Shown here one piece after another: positions 3,181 to 40,297 of a stretch of DNA of 64,000 nt. The first letter of the stretch is position 1; every line of letters begins with the position of its first letter. The stretch is from Dehalococcoidia bacterium (lineage in GTDB: Bacteria > Chloroflexota > Dehalococcoidia > Bin125), in contig OY820591.1 in NCBI GenBank assembly GCA_963555985.3, positions 1,248,001 through 1,312,000 on the forward strand, read 5' to 3'. A program made the position numbers and the translations under genes. The notes beneath the pieces were generated by a model, which was not told the DNA's origin, did no database searches, and was given only the letters and a program-made list of their open reading frames with translations.

Positions 3181-3711
3181 TTGGCCAGTACTGAGCAGCG
3201 GACGGACGGCGAGGCGGCTCGCCGCCGGGCGCGGAAGATGATTGCGGTGAGCGCCGGCGGCGTGGTCTGGCGTGAGGCGGGCCGCTCCGGTGAGGTTGAG
3301 GTGGTGCTGGTGCAGACGCCGGCGATGCGCTGGGCGCTGCCGAAGGGCAAGCCGGAGAATGGCGAGCGGCTGGCGGATACGGCGCTGCGGGAGGTGGCTG
3401 AGGAGACGGGGTTGGAAGTGGCGCTTGATGAGAAGATCGGGGTGATGCGCTACAGCTTTTCTGCGGTGGACGGCCGGATCGACAAGGCCGTGCATTTTTG
3501 GCTGATGCAGATGACGGGCGGCTCGTTTGAGAACCATGACGACGAGCATGTGGACGTGCGTTGGGTCGGTCTGGGGGATGCGATGCGGATGGTGGCGTAC
3601 CGCAACACGGCGGCGATGCTGGAGGACGCGGCGGCGATGCTTGACGCGCGGGTGCGTCCGCAGGCGGATTGGGACGTGGCGCCGAGCGGTGGGCATCAGC
3701 CGACCTGTTAG
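3181..3711 (+). CDS. NUDIX hydrolase (Ap4A/MutT-like)
   Basis: Nudix box LPKGKPENGERLADTALREVAEETG; the start may be ATG 3238. Confidence 0.88.
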   Translation: MASTEQRTDGEAARRRARKMIAVSAGGVVWREAGRSGEVEVVLVQTPAMRWALPKGKPENGERLADTALREVAEETGLEVALDEKIGVMRYSFSAVDGRIDKAVHFWLMQMTGGSFENHDDEHVDVRWVGLGDAMRMVAYRNTAAMLEDAAAMLDARVRPQADWDVAPSGGHQPTC

Positions 3712-4315: not shown

Positions 4316-4335
4316 GCGGTTAGTCGCGTTGTCGG

Positions 4336-4429
4336 ACCCCCCTCTGTCCCTACGGGACATCTCCCCCCGCAGTGCGGGGGGAGAGGGGAGTGGATGCCGG
4401 GGCTCTCCCCTCGCGGTGCGAGGGGAGAG
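4336..4429. repeat. Family A double-hairpin palindromic repeat plus a second partial hairpin, between convergent genes
   Basis: ACCCCCCTCTGTCCCTACGGGACATCTCCCCCCGCAGTGCGGGGGGAGAGGGG, then the perfect hairpin CTCTCCCCTCGC-GGT-GCGAGGGGAGAG. Near-identical copy at 4986-5038. Confidence 0.9.
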
Positions 4430-4927: not shown

Positions 4928-4985
4928 GTGGGTCTCCTTCGTTCTGGGTGCGTAGTGTAGCGGGTTCGGTGTTTTGGGGCGGGAG

Positions 4986-5108
4986 ACCCCCCTCTGTCCC
5001 TACGGGACATCTCCCCCCGCATTGCGGGGGGAGAGGGGAGGAGGGAGGGGACATCTCCTTCTGGGAGAGGGAGCGGGGACCGAGCGGGTCCCCGATCGAG
5101 TCGGGGAC
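4986..5108. repeat. Family A repeat, partial copy, and free-standing hairpin GTCCCCGATCGAGTCGGGGAC
   Basis: 4986-5038 matches 4336-4388 almost exactly; hairpin at 5088-5108. Confidence 0.88.
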
Positions 5109-5112
5109 GGGA

Positions 5113-5631
5113 TCAGTCGCCGGGGCGGGGGTAGGAGATGCCGGTGCCTCGGGAGATGGCGACGACCTTGCCGTCCTGGTTGGTGTAGGTGGTCTCGGAG
5201 ACCTGGATCAGCATGGGGACGCCGAGGGCGCCGCTCCAGCGCTCGTTGAGGGAGGCGAGTGCGGTGGCGGAGGTGAGGGTGTCGCCGGCGCAGATTTGCT
5301 CGCCGGTGTACTCGATGTCGGTGCCGCCGTTGAGTACCAGGGGGTAAGGCGAGCGGAAGCCGCCCTGACCGCGCCGTCCACCGAAGGTGGGATCGGAGTC
5401 GGCGGGGTTGAAGATGGGTGTGCCGAGGTAGCCCGGAGGTGCGGGGAGGCTGCGGAAGCCGCGCTCGCGGGCGACTTGCTCGTCGTAGAAGGCGGGGTCG
5501 ACGTAGCCGACGGAGCGGGCGAACATGCGCACGCTGGTGGTGGTCAGTTCGCTGACGGTTTCGGGGCCTTTGACGCCGATCATGTTGCGCATTTCGTCGG
5601 TGATGACCGACTCGAATCTGTCGTCTGCCAT
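5113..5631 (-). CDS. MaoC N-terminal-domain (FAS1-like) dehydratase subunit
   Basis: Start MADDRFESV. RMFARSVG..DPAFYDE..A..RGFRSLPAPP and LNGGTDIEY motifs; partner of the adjacent MaoC gene. Confidence 0.85.
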   Translation of the reverse strand: MADDRFESVITDEMRNMIGVKGPETVSELTTTSVRMFARSVGYVDPAFYDEQVARERGFRSLPAPPGYLGTPIFNPADSDPTFGGRRGQGGFRSPYPLVLNGGTDIEYTGEQICAGDTLTSATALASLNERWSGALGVPMLIQVSETTYTNQDGKVVAISRGTGISYPRPGD

Positions 5632-6464: not shown

Positions 6465-7478
6465 TCACCGGAAGTACAGCGATCGGTTGGGACGGGGTTC
6501 GTCCAGGCCGGCGAGCTTTCGGATGAAGGGGTCATCGCTGGAGTAGGGCTTGATGCGGTAACCGACGAGGGTTTGGGTGTAGACGGGCGGTTTGGGCCCG
6601 CGACCGGGCGGATAGACACGTGATTTTTTGGGCTGAGGATCGGATTTGCCGTTGTCGTCGGGGGATTGCTCGGGCTGGTGTTCGGTGGTGTTCGATTCTG
6701 TTCGATTTGGTTCGATTGCGGGCGGGTCTGGTTCGGGCGTGGACGGGTTGGGTTCGGTTGTGTCGGGTTGGTGTTCGGACCCCTCTCTGTCGCTACGGGA
6801 CATCTCCCCCCGCGATGCGGGGGGAGAGGGGGACGGGGTGGGTGACGTCTCCTCCTGCGATGCGGGGGGAGCGGAGAAGTGGTTGACATTTTCCCCTGGA
6901 GTGAGATGAGGGATGTCAACTGGTGTTGGGGAGACCCCCCCTCTGCCTTCGGCATCTCCCCCCGCAAGGGGGGGAGAGGGGGAGGGAGTGGGGCCGGCGA
7001 AGCGCTCTTGGATTTTGGCCAATTGTTCGTCGTTGGGGTAGAAGTCGTCTGCTTTGTATTCGGCGAGGAGCATTTCGAGCGCCTTGAGTTCGCGGAGGGA
7101 ATCGGCGGCGTGGTTTTCGTGGATGCGGCGCTCGCGGCGCTGGCGGCGGTCGGTGATGCGGTCGAGGGAGTCGAGCAGGAGGCGGAGTTCGCGGGCGGCC
7201 TGGATGTGTCGCTCGTGGAGGTTGTCGTCGGCCTGGCCGAACTGTTGGAGGGCGTAGAGGAGTTGGTCGGCGGCGAGCGCTTCGATGATGTGTTCGCGGT
7301 GTTGTTCGAAGGCTTTGAGGTACTGGGAGACGGTGGAGTGGGCGCAGCCCATCTGCTCGGCGATTTGGCGGAGGGAGAGTCCCTGGCAGCGGAGTAGGTA
7401 GGCCTGGAGCAGTTTGGCTCGTCGGGCGGGTGAGAGTGGGGTGTCGGTCGGCATGGTCGGCTCCTTGATTGCACTCAT
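6465..7478 (-). CDS. Helix-turn-helix protein with a repeat-derived low-complexity C-terminal half
   Basis: N-terminal HTH 'GLSLRQIAEQMGCAHSTVSQYL', helical middle region. The C-terminus is built from family A palindromes and a GTTCG array. Confidence 0.65.
   Translation of the reverse strand: MSAIKEPTMPTDTPLSPARRAKLLQAYLLRCQGLSLRQIAEQMGCAHSTVSQYLKAFEQHREHIIEALAADQLLYALQQFGQADDNLHERHIQAARELRLLLDSLDRITDRRQRRERRIHENHAADSLRELKALEMLLAEYKADDFYPNDEQLAKIQERFAGPTPSPSPPLAGGDAEGRGGVSPTPVDIPHLTPGENVNHFSAPPASQEETSPTPSPSPPASRGEMSRSDREGSEHQPDTTEPNPSTPEPDPPAIEPNRTESNTTEHQPEQSPDDNGKSDPQPKKSRVYPPGRGPKPPVYTQTLVGYRIKPYSSDDPFIRKLAGLDEPRPNRSLYFR
6680..6777 (+). repeat. Helically phased GTTCG array
   Basis: GTTCG starts at 6680, 6690, 6700, 6710, 6731, 6752 and 6773 (spacings 10,10,10,21,21,21). 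Confidence 0.8.
6779..6982. repeat. Cluster of family A palindromes inside the HTH CDS
   Basis: Full copies at ~6779-6832 and ~6934-6982; degenerate copies at ~6844-6876 and ~6886-6917. Confidence 0.85.
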
Positions 7479-19843: not shown

Positions 19844-19876
19844 GGGCTTTTCGCATGAGTGGTCTCTAGGCCCGGA

Positions 19877-19975
19877 CTCCGTCATTGCCGCGCTCCGCTG
19901 CGGCAATCTCGAGGTGCTGGCGACGACGGTGCTGGTCACGGCGAGATACCCGCGGCAAGCGCGGGTATGACGGAG
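19877..19975. repeat. Family B ~100-bp REP-doublet (REPIN/BIME-like) element
   Basis: Terminal inverted repeat CTCCGTCAT...ATGACGGAG enclosing two hairpins and the linker GACGACGGTGC. Confidence 0.88.
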
Positions 19976-22357: not shown

Positions 22358-22407
22358 GACCCTCAGCCCCGCATCAAGTGCGGGGCAGGCTCTCTCCCCA
22401 AGGAGAG
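22358..22407. repeat. Hairpin+CAGGCTC unit inside a CCCTC...CTCTCCCC..GGAGAG-type repeat
   Basis: GACCCTCAG-CCCCGCATCAAGTGCGGGG-CAGGCTC-TCTCCCCAAGGAGAG. Confidence 0.7.
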
Positions 22408-22425
22408 ACGCGCGTAAGTCCATTG

Positions 22426-22535
22426 TTCCGTCATTGCCGCGGCAATCTTGCGGTGTTCGCGACGACGGTGCAGATGACGGCGAGATATCCCACAGGACGG
22501 GGACAGGCTCCGCGGCAAGCGCGGGTATGACGGAG
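22426..22535. repeat. Family B REP-doublet element with a nested hairpin+CAGGCTC insertion
   Basis: Aligns to 19877-19975 but carries extra TCCCACAGGACGGGGACAGGCT between GAGATA and CCGCGG. Confidence 0.85.
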
Positions 22536-22571
22536 CTTGGATTTGACGCAGGTCTGCAAAGGGAGAGGGAG

Positions 22572-23552
22572 TCAGAAGTCGCGTTGGGTGATGAATTCGG
22601 CGATCTCGCCGAGCTCTGCGCGGGGGCCGCTTGCGGGGGCTTCGGCGAGTGCTTTGAGGCCTCGATCTCGCCACTCTCGGACGACGATCATGCAGCGTTC
22701 GACGATGGGTTCTTCGCGGGCGGCTTCGAGGGCGTCGGGGAGGCATTCGGCTCGGGCGTCGTCGTCGGGGGCGGCGAAGAACTTGGCGACGGGGTTGTTG
22801 TCGGGGTTGTCCTCCATCACGACGATGGCGGGGAGTGTGAGGGTACCGGCGGAGAGGTCGCCGCCGACGGGTTTGCCCAACTGCTCTTCGGTGCCGCAGA
22901 AATCGAGGATGTCGTCGACGATCTGGAAGGCCATGCCGACGCTGCGCCCGTACTCGCGGAGGGCGGCGATGGTGTCGGCGTCGCAGTCGGACATCATCGC
23001 GCCGCCGGCGCCGGCGGTGGCGAAGAGCGAGGCGGTCTTGCCGTAGATGCGGCGGTAGTAGTCGCGCATGGTGCCGGAGGCGGCGTCGAAGGCGGCGACG
23101 TCCTGGGCGAGTTCGCCTTTGGCCATGACCATCAGGGTGTCGGCGAAGAGTCGGATGACGCCGATGTGTCCAGTGCGGGCGACCAGTTCGGCGGCGTGGG
23201 CGAACATGTAGTCGCCGAGCATGACGGAGGCGGGATTGCCGAAGGTGGCATTGGCCGTGATCTGGCCGCGCCGAGTGTCGGCAGAGTCGATCACGTCGTC
23301 GTGGACGAGGGTGGCGGTGTGTAGGAGTTCGATCGAGGCGGCGAGCGGGATCTGCTTGTCGGGGTCGTAGTCGCCGAAGCCGCCGCAGAGGAGGGCGATG
23401 GCCGGGCGGAGTCGTTTGCCGCCTCGGGAGAGGACTTGGGTCAGCATCGCCTCGAGGGGGAGGAAGTCGGACTGGGCGACGAGGGAGAGGGTGTCTTCGA
23501 CGATGGCGAGATCGTCGGCGATGGGTTCGTAGAGTCGGGTGAGGGAGGTCAT
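22572..23552 (-). CDS. Polyprenyl diphosphate synthase
   Basis: GGKRLRP, ELLHTATLVHDDVID....RRG (FARM), KTA and FQIVDDILD (SARM). Confidence 0.95.
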   Translation of the reverse strand: MTSLTRLYEPIADDLAIVEDTLSLVAQSDFLPLEAMLTQVLSRGGKRLRPAIALLCGGFGDYDPDKQIPLAASIELLHTATLVHDDVIDSADTRRGQITANATFGNPASVMLGDYMFAHAAELVARTGHIGVIRLFADTLMVMAKGELAQDVAAFDAASGTMRDYYRRIYGKTASLFATAGAGGAMMSDCDADTIAALREYGRSVGMAFQIVDDILDFCGTEEQLGKPVGGDLSAGTLTLPAIVVMEDNPDNNPVAKFFAAPDDDARAECLPDALEAAREEPIVERCMIVVREWRDRGLKALAEAPASGPRAELGEIAEFITQRDF

Positions 23553-23604
23553 TGGGGATCAGGGTACTCTGGGCGTGTCTGTGGGGCATCGAAGGCGAGC
23601 GAGC

Positions 23605-24636
23605 ATGACGACCCCGAAACTCAGCCAACTCGAAGAGGTGGATGTCCGCGAGATCTGGCCCGACGAAGCTCGCGACTTCACGCCCTGGCTAGCCGAGAAT
23701 CTGCCGACGCTGAGTGAAGCGCTCGCGCTGCGACTGGAACTGATCGGAAGCGAAGAGAGCGTCGGCGACTTCTCCGCAGACATCGTGGCGGAGGTTGACC
23801 AAGGGTTCGTCGTCATCGAAAACCAGCTAGCGAAGACCGATCACGGACATCTTGGTCAACTACTGACATATGCGGCAGGCAAGGAAGCACGAGTTTTGAT
23901 CTGGGTAACGCCGGAAATCCGCGAAGAGCACAGAGCCGCATTGGAGTGGTTGAATCGATTCACGCTCGACGAGATCGCGGTGTTCGGTGTCGAGGTGCGA
24001 GCAGTCAGAATCGGTGACTCGGATCCCGCGCCAGAATTTCGGCCGATCGTTGCTCCGAATGGCTGGCAGAGGCGGCAACAACGTCAGCGCCGGGCGACCA
24101 GCACGTCGCAGACGGATTGGGCTGGCAGTTATGGGGACCTGTACCAGGGGTTCTTTCAGCCTGTGATTGACGCGTTGCGAGACAAGGACCTCACGGACAG
24201 ACGGCGCTCGTACCGTTATTACACGCAGCATTTCCCCTCTCAGTCCGGATTGCCGAATGTTGAGTATGCACTGGCATTTCTCCCGCGAGAAGGCGGACTG
24301 GCAAGTGTGCACGCCTTCATTCGAACGAAAGGAGGAGTCAACAGTGAAGTAGTGTACGAATCCTTGGTAGCCGACAAAGAGCAGATCGAGAGAGCCTTGG
24401 GAGGTACGTGGAGTTGGGAGCCACGAAGCAACTGGTGTGCGGTCAGGATGATCCGCCCAGGTCACATTGTGGAGTCCCCACCTGATGATCTGGCGAACAT
24501 TCGGGACTGGATGATTGATCTGCTCCCGAAGTTCATGTCCGAGATCGAGCCCAGGTTGAGGACCGTTGCTCGGCAGCTAGACGCGGAAGATGCGGTGGGC
24601 GTTGAGAGTGGTCTGGGTGATGATGGTGCTGATTGA
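23605..24636 (+). CDS. PD-(D/E)XK-like nuclease N-terminal domain with DUF4268-like C-terminal domain
   Basis: REIWPDEARDFTPWL, E..VGDFSADI, VVIENQL..TDHGHLGQLLTYAAG; less GC-rich than its neighbours. Confidence 0.75.
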   Translation: MTTPKLSQLEEVDVREIWPDEARDFTPWLAENLPTLSEALALRLELIGSEESVGDFSADIVAEVDQGFVVIENQLAKTDHGHLGQLLTYAAGKEARVLIWVTPEIREEHRAALEWLNRFTLDEIAVFGVEVRAVRIGDSDPAPEFRPIVAPNGWQRRQQRQRRATSTSQTDWAGSYGDLYQGFFQPVIDALRDKDLTDRRRSYRYYTQHFPSQSGLPNVEYALAFLPREGGLASVHAFIRTKGGVNSEVVYESLVADKEQIERALGGTWSWEPRSNWCAVRMIRPGHIVESPPDDLANIRDWMIDLLPKFMSEIEPRLRTVARQLDAEDAVGVESGLGDDGAD

Positions 24637-25437
24637 TTCGCCTCGAACCTCGGCAATCTGCTCGGCCGTGTATCTGATGTTGGCGGGTTCGTTTCGTTTG
24701 CCCCGACGCGGCTGTGGACTCAAGTACGGGGCGTCCGTCTCCACGACGATCGCCTCCAACGGCAACGATGCTGCCGCTTCTCGGAGGGCTTCGTTCTTGG
24801 GATAGGTGATGGGGCCGGCGAAGGAGATTTGGAAGCCGAGGTTGTGGTAGCGGAGGGCGAGGTCGGCGTCTCCGGAGAAGCAGTGGATGACTCCGATTGG
24901 GTATTCGTGGGCCTGGGCGGACCCCCCTCTGTCCCCCGATCGAGTCGGGGGCAGGCTCCTACGGGGCATCTCCCCCCGCGGTGCGGGGGGAGAGTTGGAT
25001 CGAGCCCAATCCGCGAGCACCGCGTAGGTCTCTTCGTGGGCGTCTCTTGAGTGGATGACGACGGGGAGGTTGAGTTCGTCGGCGAGGGCGAGTTGGGCTT
25101 CGAAGGCTTTGTATTGGGCGTTGTGGGGGGAGAGGTTGCGGTAGAAATCGAGGCCGATTTCGCCGATGGCGACGACTTGCTCAGACTTGGCCCATTGTCG
25201 GAACTGGTCGGCGGTGGCTTCGTTCCAGTCCTTTGCGTCGTGGGGGTGGACTCCGAGGGTCGCCCAGACGTTGGGGTATTGTTCGGCGACGGCGAGCGCG
25301 TTGCGGCTGTCTTCGAGGGAACAGCCGATGGTGACGATTCGTTTCACGTCTGCTTCGGCTGCTCGCTCGAGGATGTCGGGCAGGTCGTTGCCGATCCAGG
25401 GATCGTGGAGGTGGGCGTGGGTGTCGAAGAGCGGCAT
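24577..25437 (-). CDS. tatD: TatD-family hydrolase with an in-frame palindromic insertion
   Basis: DTHAH, GVHPH, AIGEIGLD, IHSRDA, HCFSG and ETDAPYL..RGKRNEP; follows metG. Confidence 0.93.
   Translation of the reverse strand: MPLFDTHAHLHDPWIGNDLPDILERAAEADVKRIVTIGCSLEDSRNALAVAEQYPNVWATLGVHPHDAKDWNEATADQFRQWAKSEQVVAIGEIGLDFYRNLSPHNAQYKAFEAQLALADELNLPVVIHSRDAHEETYAVLADWARSNSPPAPRGEMPRRSLPPTRSGDRGGSAQAHEYPIGVIHCFSGDADLALRYHNLGFQISFAGPITYPKNEALREAAASLPLEAIVVETDAPYLSPQPRRGKRNEPANIRYTAEQIAEVRGESISTIITQTTLNAHRIFRV
24921..24994. repeat. Family A repeat carrying a nested 24-bp hairpin+CAGGCTC unit, inside tatD
   Basis: CCCCCCTCTGTCC[CCCGATCGAGTCGGGGGCAGGCTC]CTACGGGGCATCTCCCCCCGCGGTGCGGGGGGAGAG. Confidence 0.9.
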
Positions 25438-29503: not shown

Positions 29504-29512
29504 TCACAAGAA

Positions 29513-29608
29513 CTCCGCCATTGCAGCGCTCCGCCGCGGCAATCCCGACGTGATTGGCACGATGGCACCGGACTCATCGAGATACCCGCGGCGAGCGCGG
29601 GTATGACG
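29513..29608. repeat. Family B REP-doublet element (diverged), between convergent genes
   Basis: CTCCGCCATTGCAGCGCTCCGCCGCGGCAATC...GAGATACCCGCGGCGAGCGCGGGTATGACG. Confidence 0.82.
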
Positions 29609-39517: not shown

Positions 39518-40297
39518 ATGACTGCACGGATACGTCGATTCCTGTTCATCGCTCTGGGAGTAGGCATCTCCCTGATTCTTCTCAGTTGGGGGTTCGTGTC
39601 AGCCATCGAAATCGACCCAGAAGACCTCCCGGTCGCAATACCAAGCCGCAACCCGCCAGGTTCAGTCGAGAATGACAACGACGATGACGATGCCGGTGGC
39701 GATGATGATGGCGGCGACGGGGATGACGAAAGAGAGTTGGATCGCAGTCCGTACACCGACTACGACGGGTTTAGCACCCCCGTCACCGATGACGATGGGA
39801 TCGACACCCCGACCCCCACCGACGGCGATGGTATCGACACGCCCGATACGGACGGCGACGGCATCGACACGCCGTACACGGATCACGACGGCGTGGATAC
39901 CCCGGGTACGGACAACGACGGCTTCAGCACGCCGTACACGGACTACGACGGAGTGGACACGCCCGCGACCGACAACGATGGCATCGACACCCCGTACACG
40001 GACTATGACGGCGTGGATACGCCGACGGCGACGGCGAGCGCTACGGACAATGACGGCACCGACTCCGACGGCTACGACACTCCCGATACCGACTACGACG
40101 GCGTCGATACCCCAACACCGACCGACTCGGACACTGGCGGTGCCAGCGGCTCAGGTAACGCTACTGGCGCTGCGGCAGGTAGCGACGCTCCCCCTCCGGC
40201 AACGGACAATGACGGCACCGACTCGGACGGGGTGGACACGCCCACGCCGACTCAATCCGTGAGCGACAACAGTGACGACAGCGACGACAGCGACTAG
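39518..40297 (+). CDS. Exported or membrane-anchored Asp/Thr-rich tandem-repeat protein
   Basis: Basic then hydrophobic N-terminus; more than ten TDxDGxDTP-type units; ends DNSDDSDDSD. Confidence 0.8.
   Translation: MTARIRRFLFIALGVGISLILLSWGFVSAIEIDPEDLPVAIPSRNPPGSVENDNDDDDAGGDDDGGDGDDERELDRSPYTDYDGFSTPVTDDDGIDTPTPTDGDGIDTPDTDGDGIDTPYTDHDGVDTPGTDNDGFSTPYTDYDGVDTPATDNDGIDTPYTDYDGVDTPTATASATDNDGTDSDGYDTPDTDYDGVDTPTPTDSDTGGASGSGNATGAAAGSDAPPPATDNDGTDSDGVDTPTPTQSVSDNSDDSDDSD

Follow-up and report, generated by a model that had tools for sequence, protein, structure and literature searches.

A 22-25 nt hairpin unit with an invariant CAGGCT tail nested within other palindromic repeats of a Dehalococcoidia genome: a candidate trans-mobilised micro-element

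Introduction

Of the smallest repeats of bacteria, those repetitive extragenic palindromes (REPs) that carry a GTAG tag are accounted for by REP-associated tyrosine transposases (RAYTs). Bacterial interspersed mosaic elements (BIMEs) are arrays in which different short palindromic modules are combined, and the insertion sequences (IS) of the IS200/IS605 family have a subterminal hairpin at their ends, are cleaved a few bases 3' of it and insert with strand polarity and without target duplication. Among the small dispersed repeats (SDRs) of the Nostocaceae, SDR4-6 (reportedly described by Elhai et al. in 2008) are said to be hairpins of 21-27 nt nested in other repeats. In the sections of the sources available to us, SDR5 is described as inserting between the third and fourth base of the HIP1 palindrome (PMC4390886), no SDRs were found outside the Nostocaceae (PMC5861425) and no enzyme is named for them (PMC5861425, PMC4390886). 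REPs and REP doublets forming hairpins (REPINs) are presented in the available part of Bertels and Rainey (2011, PMC3116915) as short hairpins that have a conserved flanking sequence, number in the hundreds and are thought to move as single-stranded DNA (ssDNA). The accessible text of Di Nocera et al. (2013, PMC3733652) mentions REPs located inside small palindromes in Thermomicrobium roseum, Anabaena variabilis and Halothiobacillus neapolitanus, and also defines CGTC REPs (a terminal CGTC, a stem of 8-9 bp opening with AT and a short loop), reported there without a dedicated transposase. Here we describe a small hairpin followed by the tail CAGGCT (the unit) that interrupts three different repeats within a 64,000-nt stretch of the genome of a Dehalococcoidia bacterium (Chloroflexota), namely positions 1,248,001 to 1,312,000 of contig OY820591.1, assembly GCA_963555985.3; this whole stretch is called the window.

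The closest precedents of the unit are the SDRs and the REPs located in palindromes. Compared by description, and as far as the available sections on the SDRs go, the unit resembles the SDRs in being a tiny hairpin in many copies that is precisely inserted into short palindromes, is restricted to certain lineages and has no enzyme named for it. The differences are that its carriers are Chloroflexota and not cyanobacteria, that it targets hairpins of various kinds, in their C-rich arm or loop, whereas SDR5 uses one fixed octamer, and that an invariant 6-nt tail accompanies covarying stems in three genera. The nesting is also like that of the REPs in palindromes, in the part of PMC3733652 accessible to us, and one of the host repeats (family B) fits the CGTC type; the unit itself, again by description, differs in having neither a GTAG nor a CGTC tag, in being a single hairpin with a 3' CAGGCT and in that no RAYT was found in its carriers. 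No description of this unit was found in the limited literature searched (REPs in Chloroflexi and SDRs), where, among the papers listed, PMC3733652 alone was relevant to REPs of Chloroflexi.

The reading that we favor, and to which we would give a probability of roughly 60%, is that the unit would be a discrete, non-coding micro-element of 22-25 nt, mobilised in trans and spreading mainly by hitch-hiking on its hosts. As a case, it shows that nested hitch-hiking can drive the copy number of a repeat, and that coding sequences can take up such units without loss of the reading frame (tatD by way of a host repeat, and a transposase gene of a relative).

Copies of the unit in the window and in the genome

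The original prediction, made from the sequence of the window, was that the same combination of hairpin and tail interrupts three types of repeat, and the three copies were indeed found where it placed them, with the same layout (Table 1). Copy (i) lies within tatD in a family-A repeat, whose 5' hairpin it interrupts, and appears as a gap of 24 columns when the repeat is aligned with three uninterrupted family-A copies of the window, a net gain of 24 nt that keeps the reading frame, just as predicted; its DNA fold has -7.9 kcal/mol (z -2.6). Copy (ii) interrupts the terminal hairpin of a family-B repeat, within the 5' arm, and corresponds to a gap of 21 columns against two uninterrupted family-B copies (a net gain of 21 nt), so that in both cases the empty hosts define the insertion point, as had been expected. 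The hairpin of copy (ii) is weak, with 4 bp and -2.2 kcal/mol (z -0.9; 35 of 200 shuffled sequences fold equally well), and this hairpin form has five occurrences on the main contig. Copy (iii) interrupts a CCCTCA...CTCTCCCC repeat (H5 type) immediately 3' of a stop codon, its fold is strong (-11.6 kcal/mol, z -5.1) and empty H5 sites are present elsewhere in the genome. The hairpin of copy (i) had also been noticed once without a tail. We have found it there (-9.5 kcal/mol, z -2.8); since the CGGGATC downstream matches CAGGCTC at five of seven positions, this is probably a decayed unit and not a tail-less hairpin.

Table 1. Positions of the unit, its hosts and associated features (window positions count from the first letter of the window; G000 is the genome under study and C1 its main contig)
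Feature	Sequence	Position	Strand	Description
Unit (i)	window	24933-24957	+	CCCCCGA/TCGAG/TCGGGGG hairpin 24933-24951, CAGGCT tail 24952-24957
Unit (ii)	window	22488-22509	+	Degenerate TCCC-ACAGGACG-GGGA, then CAGGCT; family-B host
Unit (iii)	window	22367-22391	+	CCCCGCA-TCAAG-TGCGGGG hairpin, then CAGGCT
Probable decayed unit	window	5089-5113	+	TCCCCGA-TCGAG-TCGGGGA hairpin (5089-5107), then CGGGAT in place of CAGGCT
Host repeat A with nested unit	window	24918-24998	+	Two-hairpin, REP-like; in-frame 81 nt (27 aa) in tatD
Host repeat B	window	22422-22545	+	About 100 nt, ends CCGTCAT...ATGACGG; also delimited as 22422-22541
Host repeat H5	window	22358-22408	+	GACCCTCAG - unit - CTCTCCCCAAGGAGAGAC
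Family A, uninterrupted	window	4335-4399	+	Empty reference
Family A, uninterrupted	window	4985-5049		Empty reference
Family A, uninterrupted	window	6778-6842		Empty reference
Family B, uninterrupted	window	19876-19972	+	Empty reference
Family B, uninterrupted	window	29512-29608		Empty reference
tatD-like hydrolase gene	window	24577-25437	-	Hosts the family-A repeat; from homologue comparison
Unit in transposase gene	L071 (G024:C2)	3252-3275		24-nt unit, 8 codons in frame; about 9 similar loci
HTH gene, window copy	window	6465-7478	-	Multi-copy gene
HTH gene, paralogue	G000:C1	58270-58956		One of 15 paralogues on the main contig
Inversion in a family-B copy	G000:C1	172374 region		13-bp inversion of GGGGACAGGCTCC
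CRISPR-like array	G000:C1	1758010-1758594		Four 36-nt repeats, spacers of about 30 nt
Multi-copy element of about 600 nt	G000:C1	2635980-2636576		Also at about 27 other places
338-aa transposase	G000:C1	3136744-3137760		One of ten copies
338-aa transposase	G000:C1	1543410-1544426		One of ten copies
Periodic repeats in coding region	window	39744-40243		30-nt period

The insert in the TatD protein (27 residues, in frame) is thus two-layered, a family-A repeat plus the nested unit of 24 nt, both in frame. It falls in a gap in three homologues, the closest of them 77% identical over the full alignment, and the closest named relatives come from metagenome-assembled genomes (MAGs) of Chloroflexota and Dehalococcoidia. 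In genome and metagenome collections the best segment was at most 70% identical, and those relatives that could be aligned lacked the entire repeat. Palindromic elements of Rickettsia lie in coding genes too, according to the background given in the available sections of PMC3733652. The likeness (a repeat in frame within a conserved gene) concerns host repeat A, while the unit differs in adding a second in-frame layer.

The assembly has 3.33 Mb (main contig 3.15 Mb), 65% G+C, an estimated completeness of 96% and an estimated contamination of 7.5%. In the window the heptamer CAGGCTC, taken by itself, shows no enrichment (7 matches, 13.1 expected). Throughout the genome, counting both strands, 123 of its 606 occurrences have a preceding run of G, nearly all of them in recognisable repeat contexts. 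By a deliberately loose hairpin test, 130 of the 606 (21%) stand behind a hairpin of at least 5 bp, against 5-15% for 40 composition-matched heptamers, so that the predicted association of the tail with hairpins is above background. The motif GGGG[A/G]CAGGCT has 112 copies, and its reversed control only 4.

We have catalogued 144 units, admitting stems from 4 bp upwards and a single mismatch in the tail. On the main contig, 126 units of hairpin plus tail were examined for their flanks. At least one flanking 14-mer was present at least five times for 89 of these 126 units, a condition that only 4.4% of random positions share, and both flanking 14-mers were multi-copy at the same threshold for 35 (0.8% of random positions). 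The remaining units (about 40) were found by inspection to lie in diverged copies of known hosts, with about two exceptions. The enrichment inside other repeats on which the original prediction hinged is therefore a property of the genome and not only of the window.

Host repeats and growth of copy number

The hosts are abundant in their own right and represent at least five unrelated contexts, to which the transposase gene in a relative has to be added. The 5' hairpin of family A (H1, CCTCTG...CATCTCC) has 220 copies, 140 of them with an empty inner sequence of 11 nt and covarying stems and about 36 filled by a unit; of the 169 copies of the terminal hairpin of family B, about 120 are empty and about 25 filled. 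The second hairpin of family A, variants of B and the H5 repeat are further hosts, and the same unit classes are found in all of them. Family B ends in CCGTC-ATACCCGCG-loop-CGCGGGTAT, i.e. with a CGTC tag and a 9-bp stem opening with AT and, judged by its sequence, it fits the CGTC-tagged REP type as defined in the accessible text of PMC3733652.

When grouped by insertion site and unit class, the 126 units collapse into 33 groups, and identical composites of host and unit recur at many loci. Most copies are therefore composites that were amplified jointly, and the independent insertions number tens at most. This makes the description of the unit as a "parasite of parasites", which the original prediction had offered, an apt one, because most of the copies ride on amplifying host repeats.

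As a separate observation on the hosts, the orientation of families A and B follows the split seen when the GC skew is cumulated along the main contig. The curve is lowest at 0.27 Mb and peaks at 3.04 Mb of the 3.15 Mb, without the usual two equal arms.

Structure and boundaries of the unit

The unit consists of 22-25 nt, a perfect GC-rich hairpin (stem of 6-7 bp, loop of 4-7 nt) and then the invariant CAGGCT. Among the 53 distinct hairpin forms collected from this genome and from loci of three relatives, the commonest class has a loop of 4 nt, and the stems show compensatory pairs such as CCCCTG/CAGGGG, CCCCAG/CTGGGG, CCCCCG/CGGGGG, CCCCCGA/TCGGGGG, CCCCGCA/TGCGGGG and TCCCCGG/CCGGGGA. The tail remains constant across three genera, with CAGGCA appearing now and then. 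The A or G in front of it is the last base of the stem, and the outer pairs T-A and C-G covary (TCCCCGC...GCGGGGA versus CCCCCGC...GCGGGGG). Since this base pairs with the one that opens the hairpin, the tail is six bases long. Of the heptamer CAGGCTC predicted originally, CAGGCT is the conserved part and the final C belongs to the host or is ambiguous. The units have no GTAG tag of their own (GTAG arises only where the loop of a family-A host supplies CTAC), and on the opposite strand they read as a conserved tag, AGCCTG, followed by the hairpin.

A way to delimit the unit is to look for its flanks joined without it. For 53 of the 144 catalogued units, the junction of the two 10-nt flanks was found elsewhere in the genome, with up to 40 empty sites each. 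The insert deduced from these comparisons was always of 22-24 nt, from CCC... through ...CAGGC(T), and none of the resolved sites had a target duplication. The comparison of filled and empty alleles, proposed earlier as a source of both target and target-site duplication, has accordingly given the former, a C-rich 5' arm or loop with exact empty sites, and no sign of the latter. Insertion takes place where the C-rich 5' arm of the host ends on its 3' side, a few bases before that end, or behind the first base of the loop, and the preceding base is C, rarely T. At the left, the junction always falls within a run of C common to host and unit (microhomology of 1-3 nt). At the right there is no microhomology, yet the junction stays within 1-2 nt of one point across unrelated hosts.

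The polarity of the unit relative to its host is nearly uniform, with 88 forward and 2 reverse cases (forward to reverse, 32:0 in H1, 16:1 in B, 6:0 in B2, 5:0 in B3, 22:1 in H2 and 7:0 in H5). One of the two exceptions is a local inversion of 13 bp and the other lies in a symmetric hairpin. The empty sites, the polarity and the diversity of host contexts bear out the notion of a discrete minimal unit that sits within other palindromic repeats, in their stems and loops.

The unit in related genomes

We have compared 41 genomes (the genome under study and 40 relatives) for the number of GGGG[A/G]CAGGCT motifs and of reversed controls. The unit is abundant in five of them, belonging to three genera, and at background level in the other 36. 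Besides the genome under study (112 copies, control 4), these are G007 of genus g8 (91, control 5) and three genomes of genus g7, namely G018 (27, control 4), G024 (28, control 2) and G013 (11, control 1). Three congeners of G007 (G014, G019 and G022) have only 2 copies each, and the distribution is thus burst-like and patchy among congeners. Two of these three, G014 and G022, have plenty of family-A repeats (116 and 85 copies) and almost no units, so that the hosts exist independently of the unit.

The unit of G007 reads CCCCG-TTCG[A/G]GC-CGGGG-GCAGGCT and is mostly found at the same family-B site that is also used by two copies in the genome under study; at one locus (L017) three units follow each other in head-to-tail tandem. 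G013 has H5 repeats bearing the unit on both sides of a helix-turn-helix (HTH) gene and, at locus L005, a unit nested in the loop of another unit-type hairpin. About ten copies in G024 lie in frame within a multi-copy transposase gene (Table 1), which we take, from its motifs judged by eye, to belong to the IS5 family. This insertion sequence evidently went on multiplying with the unit inside. Other units of the same genome are in H5, in B and in apparently unique sequence.

How the unit may move

As the sequence shows, the unit enters DNA as one piece, seamlessly, without target-site duplication and in one polarity, almost always behind a C (sometimes a T), where another hairpin has its C-rich 5' arm or the 5' part of its loop. 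Its usual hosts are other repeats (A, B and its variants, H5), with self-nesting, tandem arrays and a transposase gene as additional destinations, and after entry it multiplies chiefly when the host repeat multiplies. In the reading that we favor, fresh insertions would be the work, in trans, of a protein able to recognise the unit as a folded single strand (the stem plus CAGGCT) and to cut and join DNA at its two feet, a protein presumably different from the known Y1-HUH transposases, relaxases and reverse transcriptases. Sharp ends, a single polarity and an invariant tail next to covarying stems in three genera argue for such recognition of a folded strand and against pure copying errors. 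DDE transposition leaves a target duplication, and its absence here argues against DDE transposases, while the gene content (see below) argues against the known HUH families and against retro-insertion. A bolder version, that the unit represents a second, independent lineage of mobile DNA of about 24 nt moved by an enzyme outside both the HUH group and the reverse transcriptases, seems to us less likely than not, and we would hold it only tentatively. The same caution applies to the idea that any perfect GC stem followed by CAGGCT could be spliced into hairpin arms, as a parasite of REPs, of repeats resembling miniature inverted-repeat transposable elements (MITEs) and of IS transposase genes alike.

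Several observations weigh against trans-mobilisation. The 3' boundary varies by 1-2 nt (CAGGC, CAGGCT or CAGGCTC), the filled and empty forms of H2 differ by one extra C, and the genome also has rearrangements mediated by hairpins that involve no unit boundary. Polarity and copy count are largely inherited from a few composite founders, with independent insertions well below the number of copies. No enzyme for the unit was identified, nor did we find a nuclease or transposase gene flanked specifically by it, as the original prediction had hoped for. The mobility itself we infer from paralogous filled and empty sites only. The five units present on the strain-variant contigs of the assembly were all matched on the main contig and no orthologous pair of filled and empty sites was found there; the 18 indels of at least 8 nt in 173,795 aligned nt between these contigs and the main one included none of the size of a unit. 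There is, then, no sign of movement of the unit at the time depth of the strain-variant contigs. The comparison at genus level yielded no alignable orthologous repeat, and an intergenic repeat block of G007 had no counterpart in G019.

As to the contigs just mentioned, they are ten small ones (C2-C11, about 189 kb) that are 95-99% identical to regions of the main contig. They represent a second strain that was collapsed into the assembly, in agreement with the contamination estimate. The stretch is also present in three runs of one study, with no RNA run listed; their contigs break at the repeats and, among the joints listed, none skips a unit, which speaks neither for nor against movement.

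The alternative that survives best requires no enzyme. In it, the pattern would be a mosaic produced by template switching, gene conversion or illegitimate recombination among GC-rich hairpins, similar to the shuffling of modules in BIMEs. The microhomology at the left junction is what such a process would leave, and the repeats do rearrange in this manner: in one family-B copy, a stretch of 13 bp (GGGGACAGGCTCC) has been inverted between short inverted repeats (Table 1), some inversion chimeras have their breakpoints centred in the loop of the unit hairpin, and mixed arrays of different repeats are present, with one left part (H4) joined to several right parts. Some of the mosaicism therefore requires no element-specific enzyme, and an origin by recombination alone keeps some weight. 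Mixed arrays of modules are indeed the point in common with BIMEs; the difference is that here one module with defined ends interrupts the others. The nearly fixed right junction without microhomology is hard to reconcile with a mosaic, a tail that stays invariant across three genera while the stems covary points to recognition and not to chance copying, and neither does the burst-like distribution among congeners speak for it. On balance we consider a purely recombinational origin unlikely.

An HUH enzyme is less probable still. A Y1 or other HUH protein, of the REP/RAYT or IS200/IS605 kind, would bind the hairpin on ssDNA, cut after CAGGCT and paste the unit into other hairpins, along the lines of the chemistry that the original prediction had suggested with CAGGCTC as guide or cleavage end. 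Transposition of ssDNA by HUH enzymes (IS608, RAYT) yields seamless and polar insertions. The strict polarity, the lack of duplications, the hairpin with its short conserved flank and the head-to-tail arrays would all agree with it, and the opposite strand, with its AGCCTG tag before the hairpin, has a REP-like layout. The genes, though, were not found. PF01797 (the TnpA of IS200/IS605 and RAYT) had no match in the genome under study nor in any of 24 relatives at the family level, including the other four unit-rich genomes, while the same search was positive in 6 of 14 control genomes. The relaxase PF03432 and TrwC PF08751 were each absent from all five unit-rich genomes. Among these five, TnpB occurs in the genome under study only, as a single copy beside a CRISPR-like array (clustered regularly interspaced short palindromic repeats) and away from the units, and the unit itself has no GTAG tag. 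Canonical HUH chemistry is thus not supported by the gene content, and an HUH family that escaped these searches has a small probability.

The comparison with the enzyme-defined families leads in the same direction. The unit shares with REPs and REPINs the short hairpin (stems of 6-7 bp), the conserved flank, the high copy number (112) and a length in the 20-40 nt range of their palindromes. It departs from them in that no RAYT was found, in that the flank is CAGGCT and not a GTAG foot, and in that the units are single and not inverted doublets, nested in repeats and not free in intergenic space. Like a miniature IS200/IS605 it inserts without target duplication and in one polarity, but here a single hairpin is the whole unit, TnpA was not found and the target is only the preceding C or T, with no fixed tetra- or pentanucleotide seen. 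Nor does it look like a MITE mobilised by a DDE enzyme, having no target duplication and asymmetric ends (the foot of the hairpin on one side, CAGGCT on the other). We place the unit outside the REP-RAYT and IS200/IS605 families because the enzyme that defines them was searched for and not found. Among other candidates, serine recombinases/resolvases (PF00239) are present in all ten genomes tested and do not discriminate, and an origin from CRISPR repeats was discarded when the sole array found turned out to have an unrelated repeat of 36 nt.

It is very improbable that the unit is simply a functional site favoured by selection, bound or processed for instance by a protein with affinity for RNA or DNA, that conversion has carried from repeat to repeat. 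The invariant tail and the structure kept across genera would suit such a site, and the hosts are REP-like; REPs elsewhere often act as RNA hairpins, according to the available part of PMC3733652. However, the unit is nearly absent (2 copies each) from G014 and G022 in spite of their 116 and 85 family-A repeats, and within coding sequence (tatD and the G024 transposase) it has no obvious role.

Last, an origin from a tRNA, whose 3' portion would have supplied a T arm (5-bp stem, 7-nt TTCRAGN loop) plus the 7-nt acceptor strand, 24 nt in all, with spread through RNA or cDNA, was suggested by the dimensions and loop that we saw by eye in CCCCG-TTCGAGC-CGGGG-GCAGGCT, and is essentially refuted: no gene that ARAGORN called for a tRNA or for the tmRNA ends with this acceptor strand, Rfam gave no tRNA match on the unit at E values up to 10, CCA is absent behind the units, the commonest class has a 4-nt loop and reverse transcriptase (PF00078) was found in none of ten genomes. 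Rfam detected only two tRNAs at gathering score in the window and, at the locus (L073) of an apparently free-standing unit, only a sub-threshold small RNA match (21 versus 72 bits).

This is a useful case among the smallest repeats, with clean boundaries, an invariant tail next to covarying stems, filled and empty hosts, and related complete genomes with and without a burst. Together these properties bring a comparative search for the factor responsible within reach. With complete genomes of congeners ranging from 91 copies (G007) to 2 (G014, G019 and G022), a dedicated enzyme, if one moves the unit, could be found by subtraction of gene contents, and finding it would also be informative about how the cyanobacterial SDRs move.

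Genes and elements found with the repeats

A multi-copy HTH gene, with one copy in the window and 15 paralogues on the main contig, is enriched beside units, since 23 of 173 tails are within 600 nt of one of the 15 paralogues, against a mean of 1.4 for random positions. In three genera (that of the genome under study, g7 and g8) it has family-A or H5 repeats on both sides in fixed orientation. It is present in all six family-A-rich genomes, and the open frame of the window copy crosses two family-A copies. The protein has an N-terminal HTH plus long helices, with no catalytic domain found and no fold match at E values up to 0.001. Only 25 homologues were retrieved among 5.8 billion proteins, two of them named (a DeoR-family regulator and a hypothetical protein, both from MAGs of Chloroflexi). 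As mobiliser of the unit the gene was rejected, being present in G014, G019 and G022, with 2 units each, and not found in G024, with 28. From its domains and surroundings, the product may be a repeat-associated DNA-binding protein.

The CRISPR-like array adjoins a frame of 570 codons with a zinc ribbon like those of TnpB/Cas12f (E 4e-21), and together they probably make up a type V CRISPR-Cas locus of small size.

The repeat arrays also contain a second multi-copy element (about 600 nt, copies 75-94% identical to each other) with a small conserved reading frame for some 118 aa (MPF.HTYQSSMTGVGQ...). Several of the copies of a 338-aa transposase end some 50-130 nt from family-B repeats that bear a unit, which suggests that this insertion sequence targets them; from motifs compared by eye, we presume it to be of the IS30 family. 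The last repetitive feature of the window is the 30-nt periodic stretch in a coding region (Table 1), rich in GAC and GGC codons (units of the D-x-D-G type).

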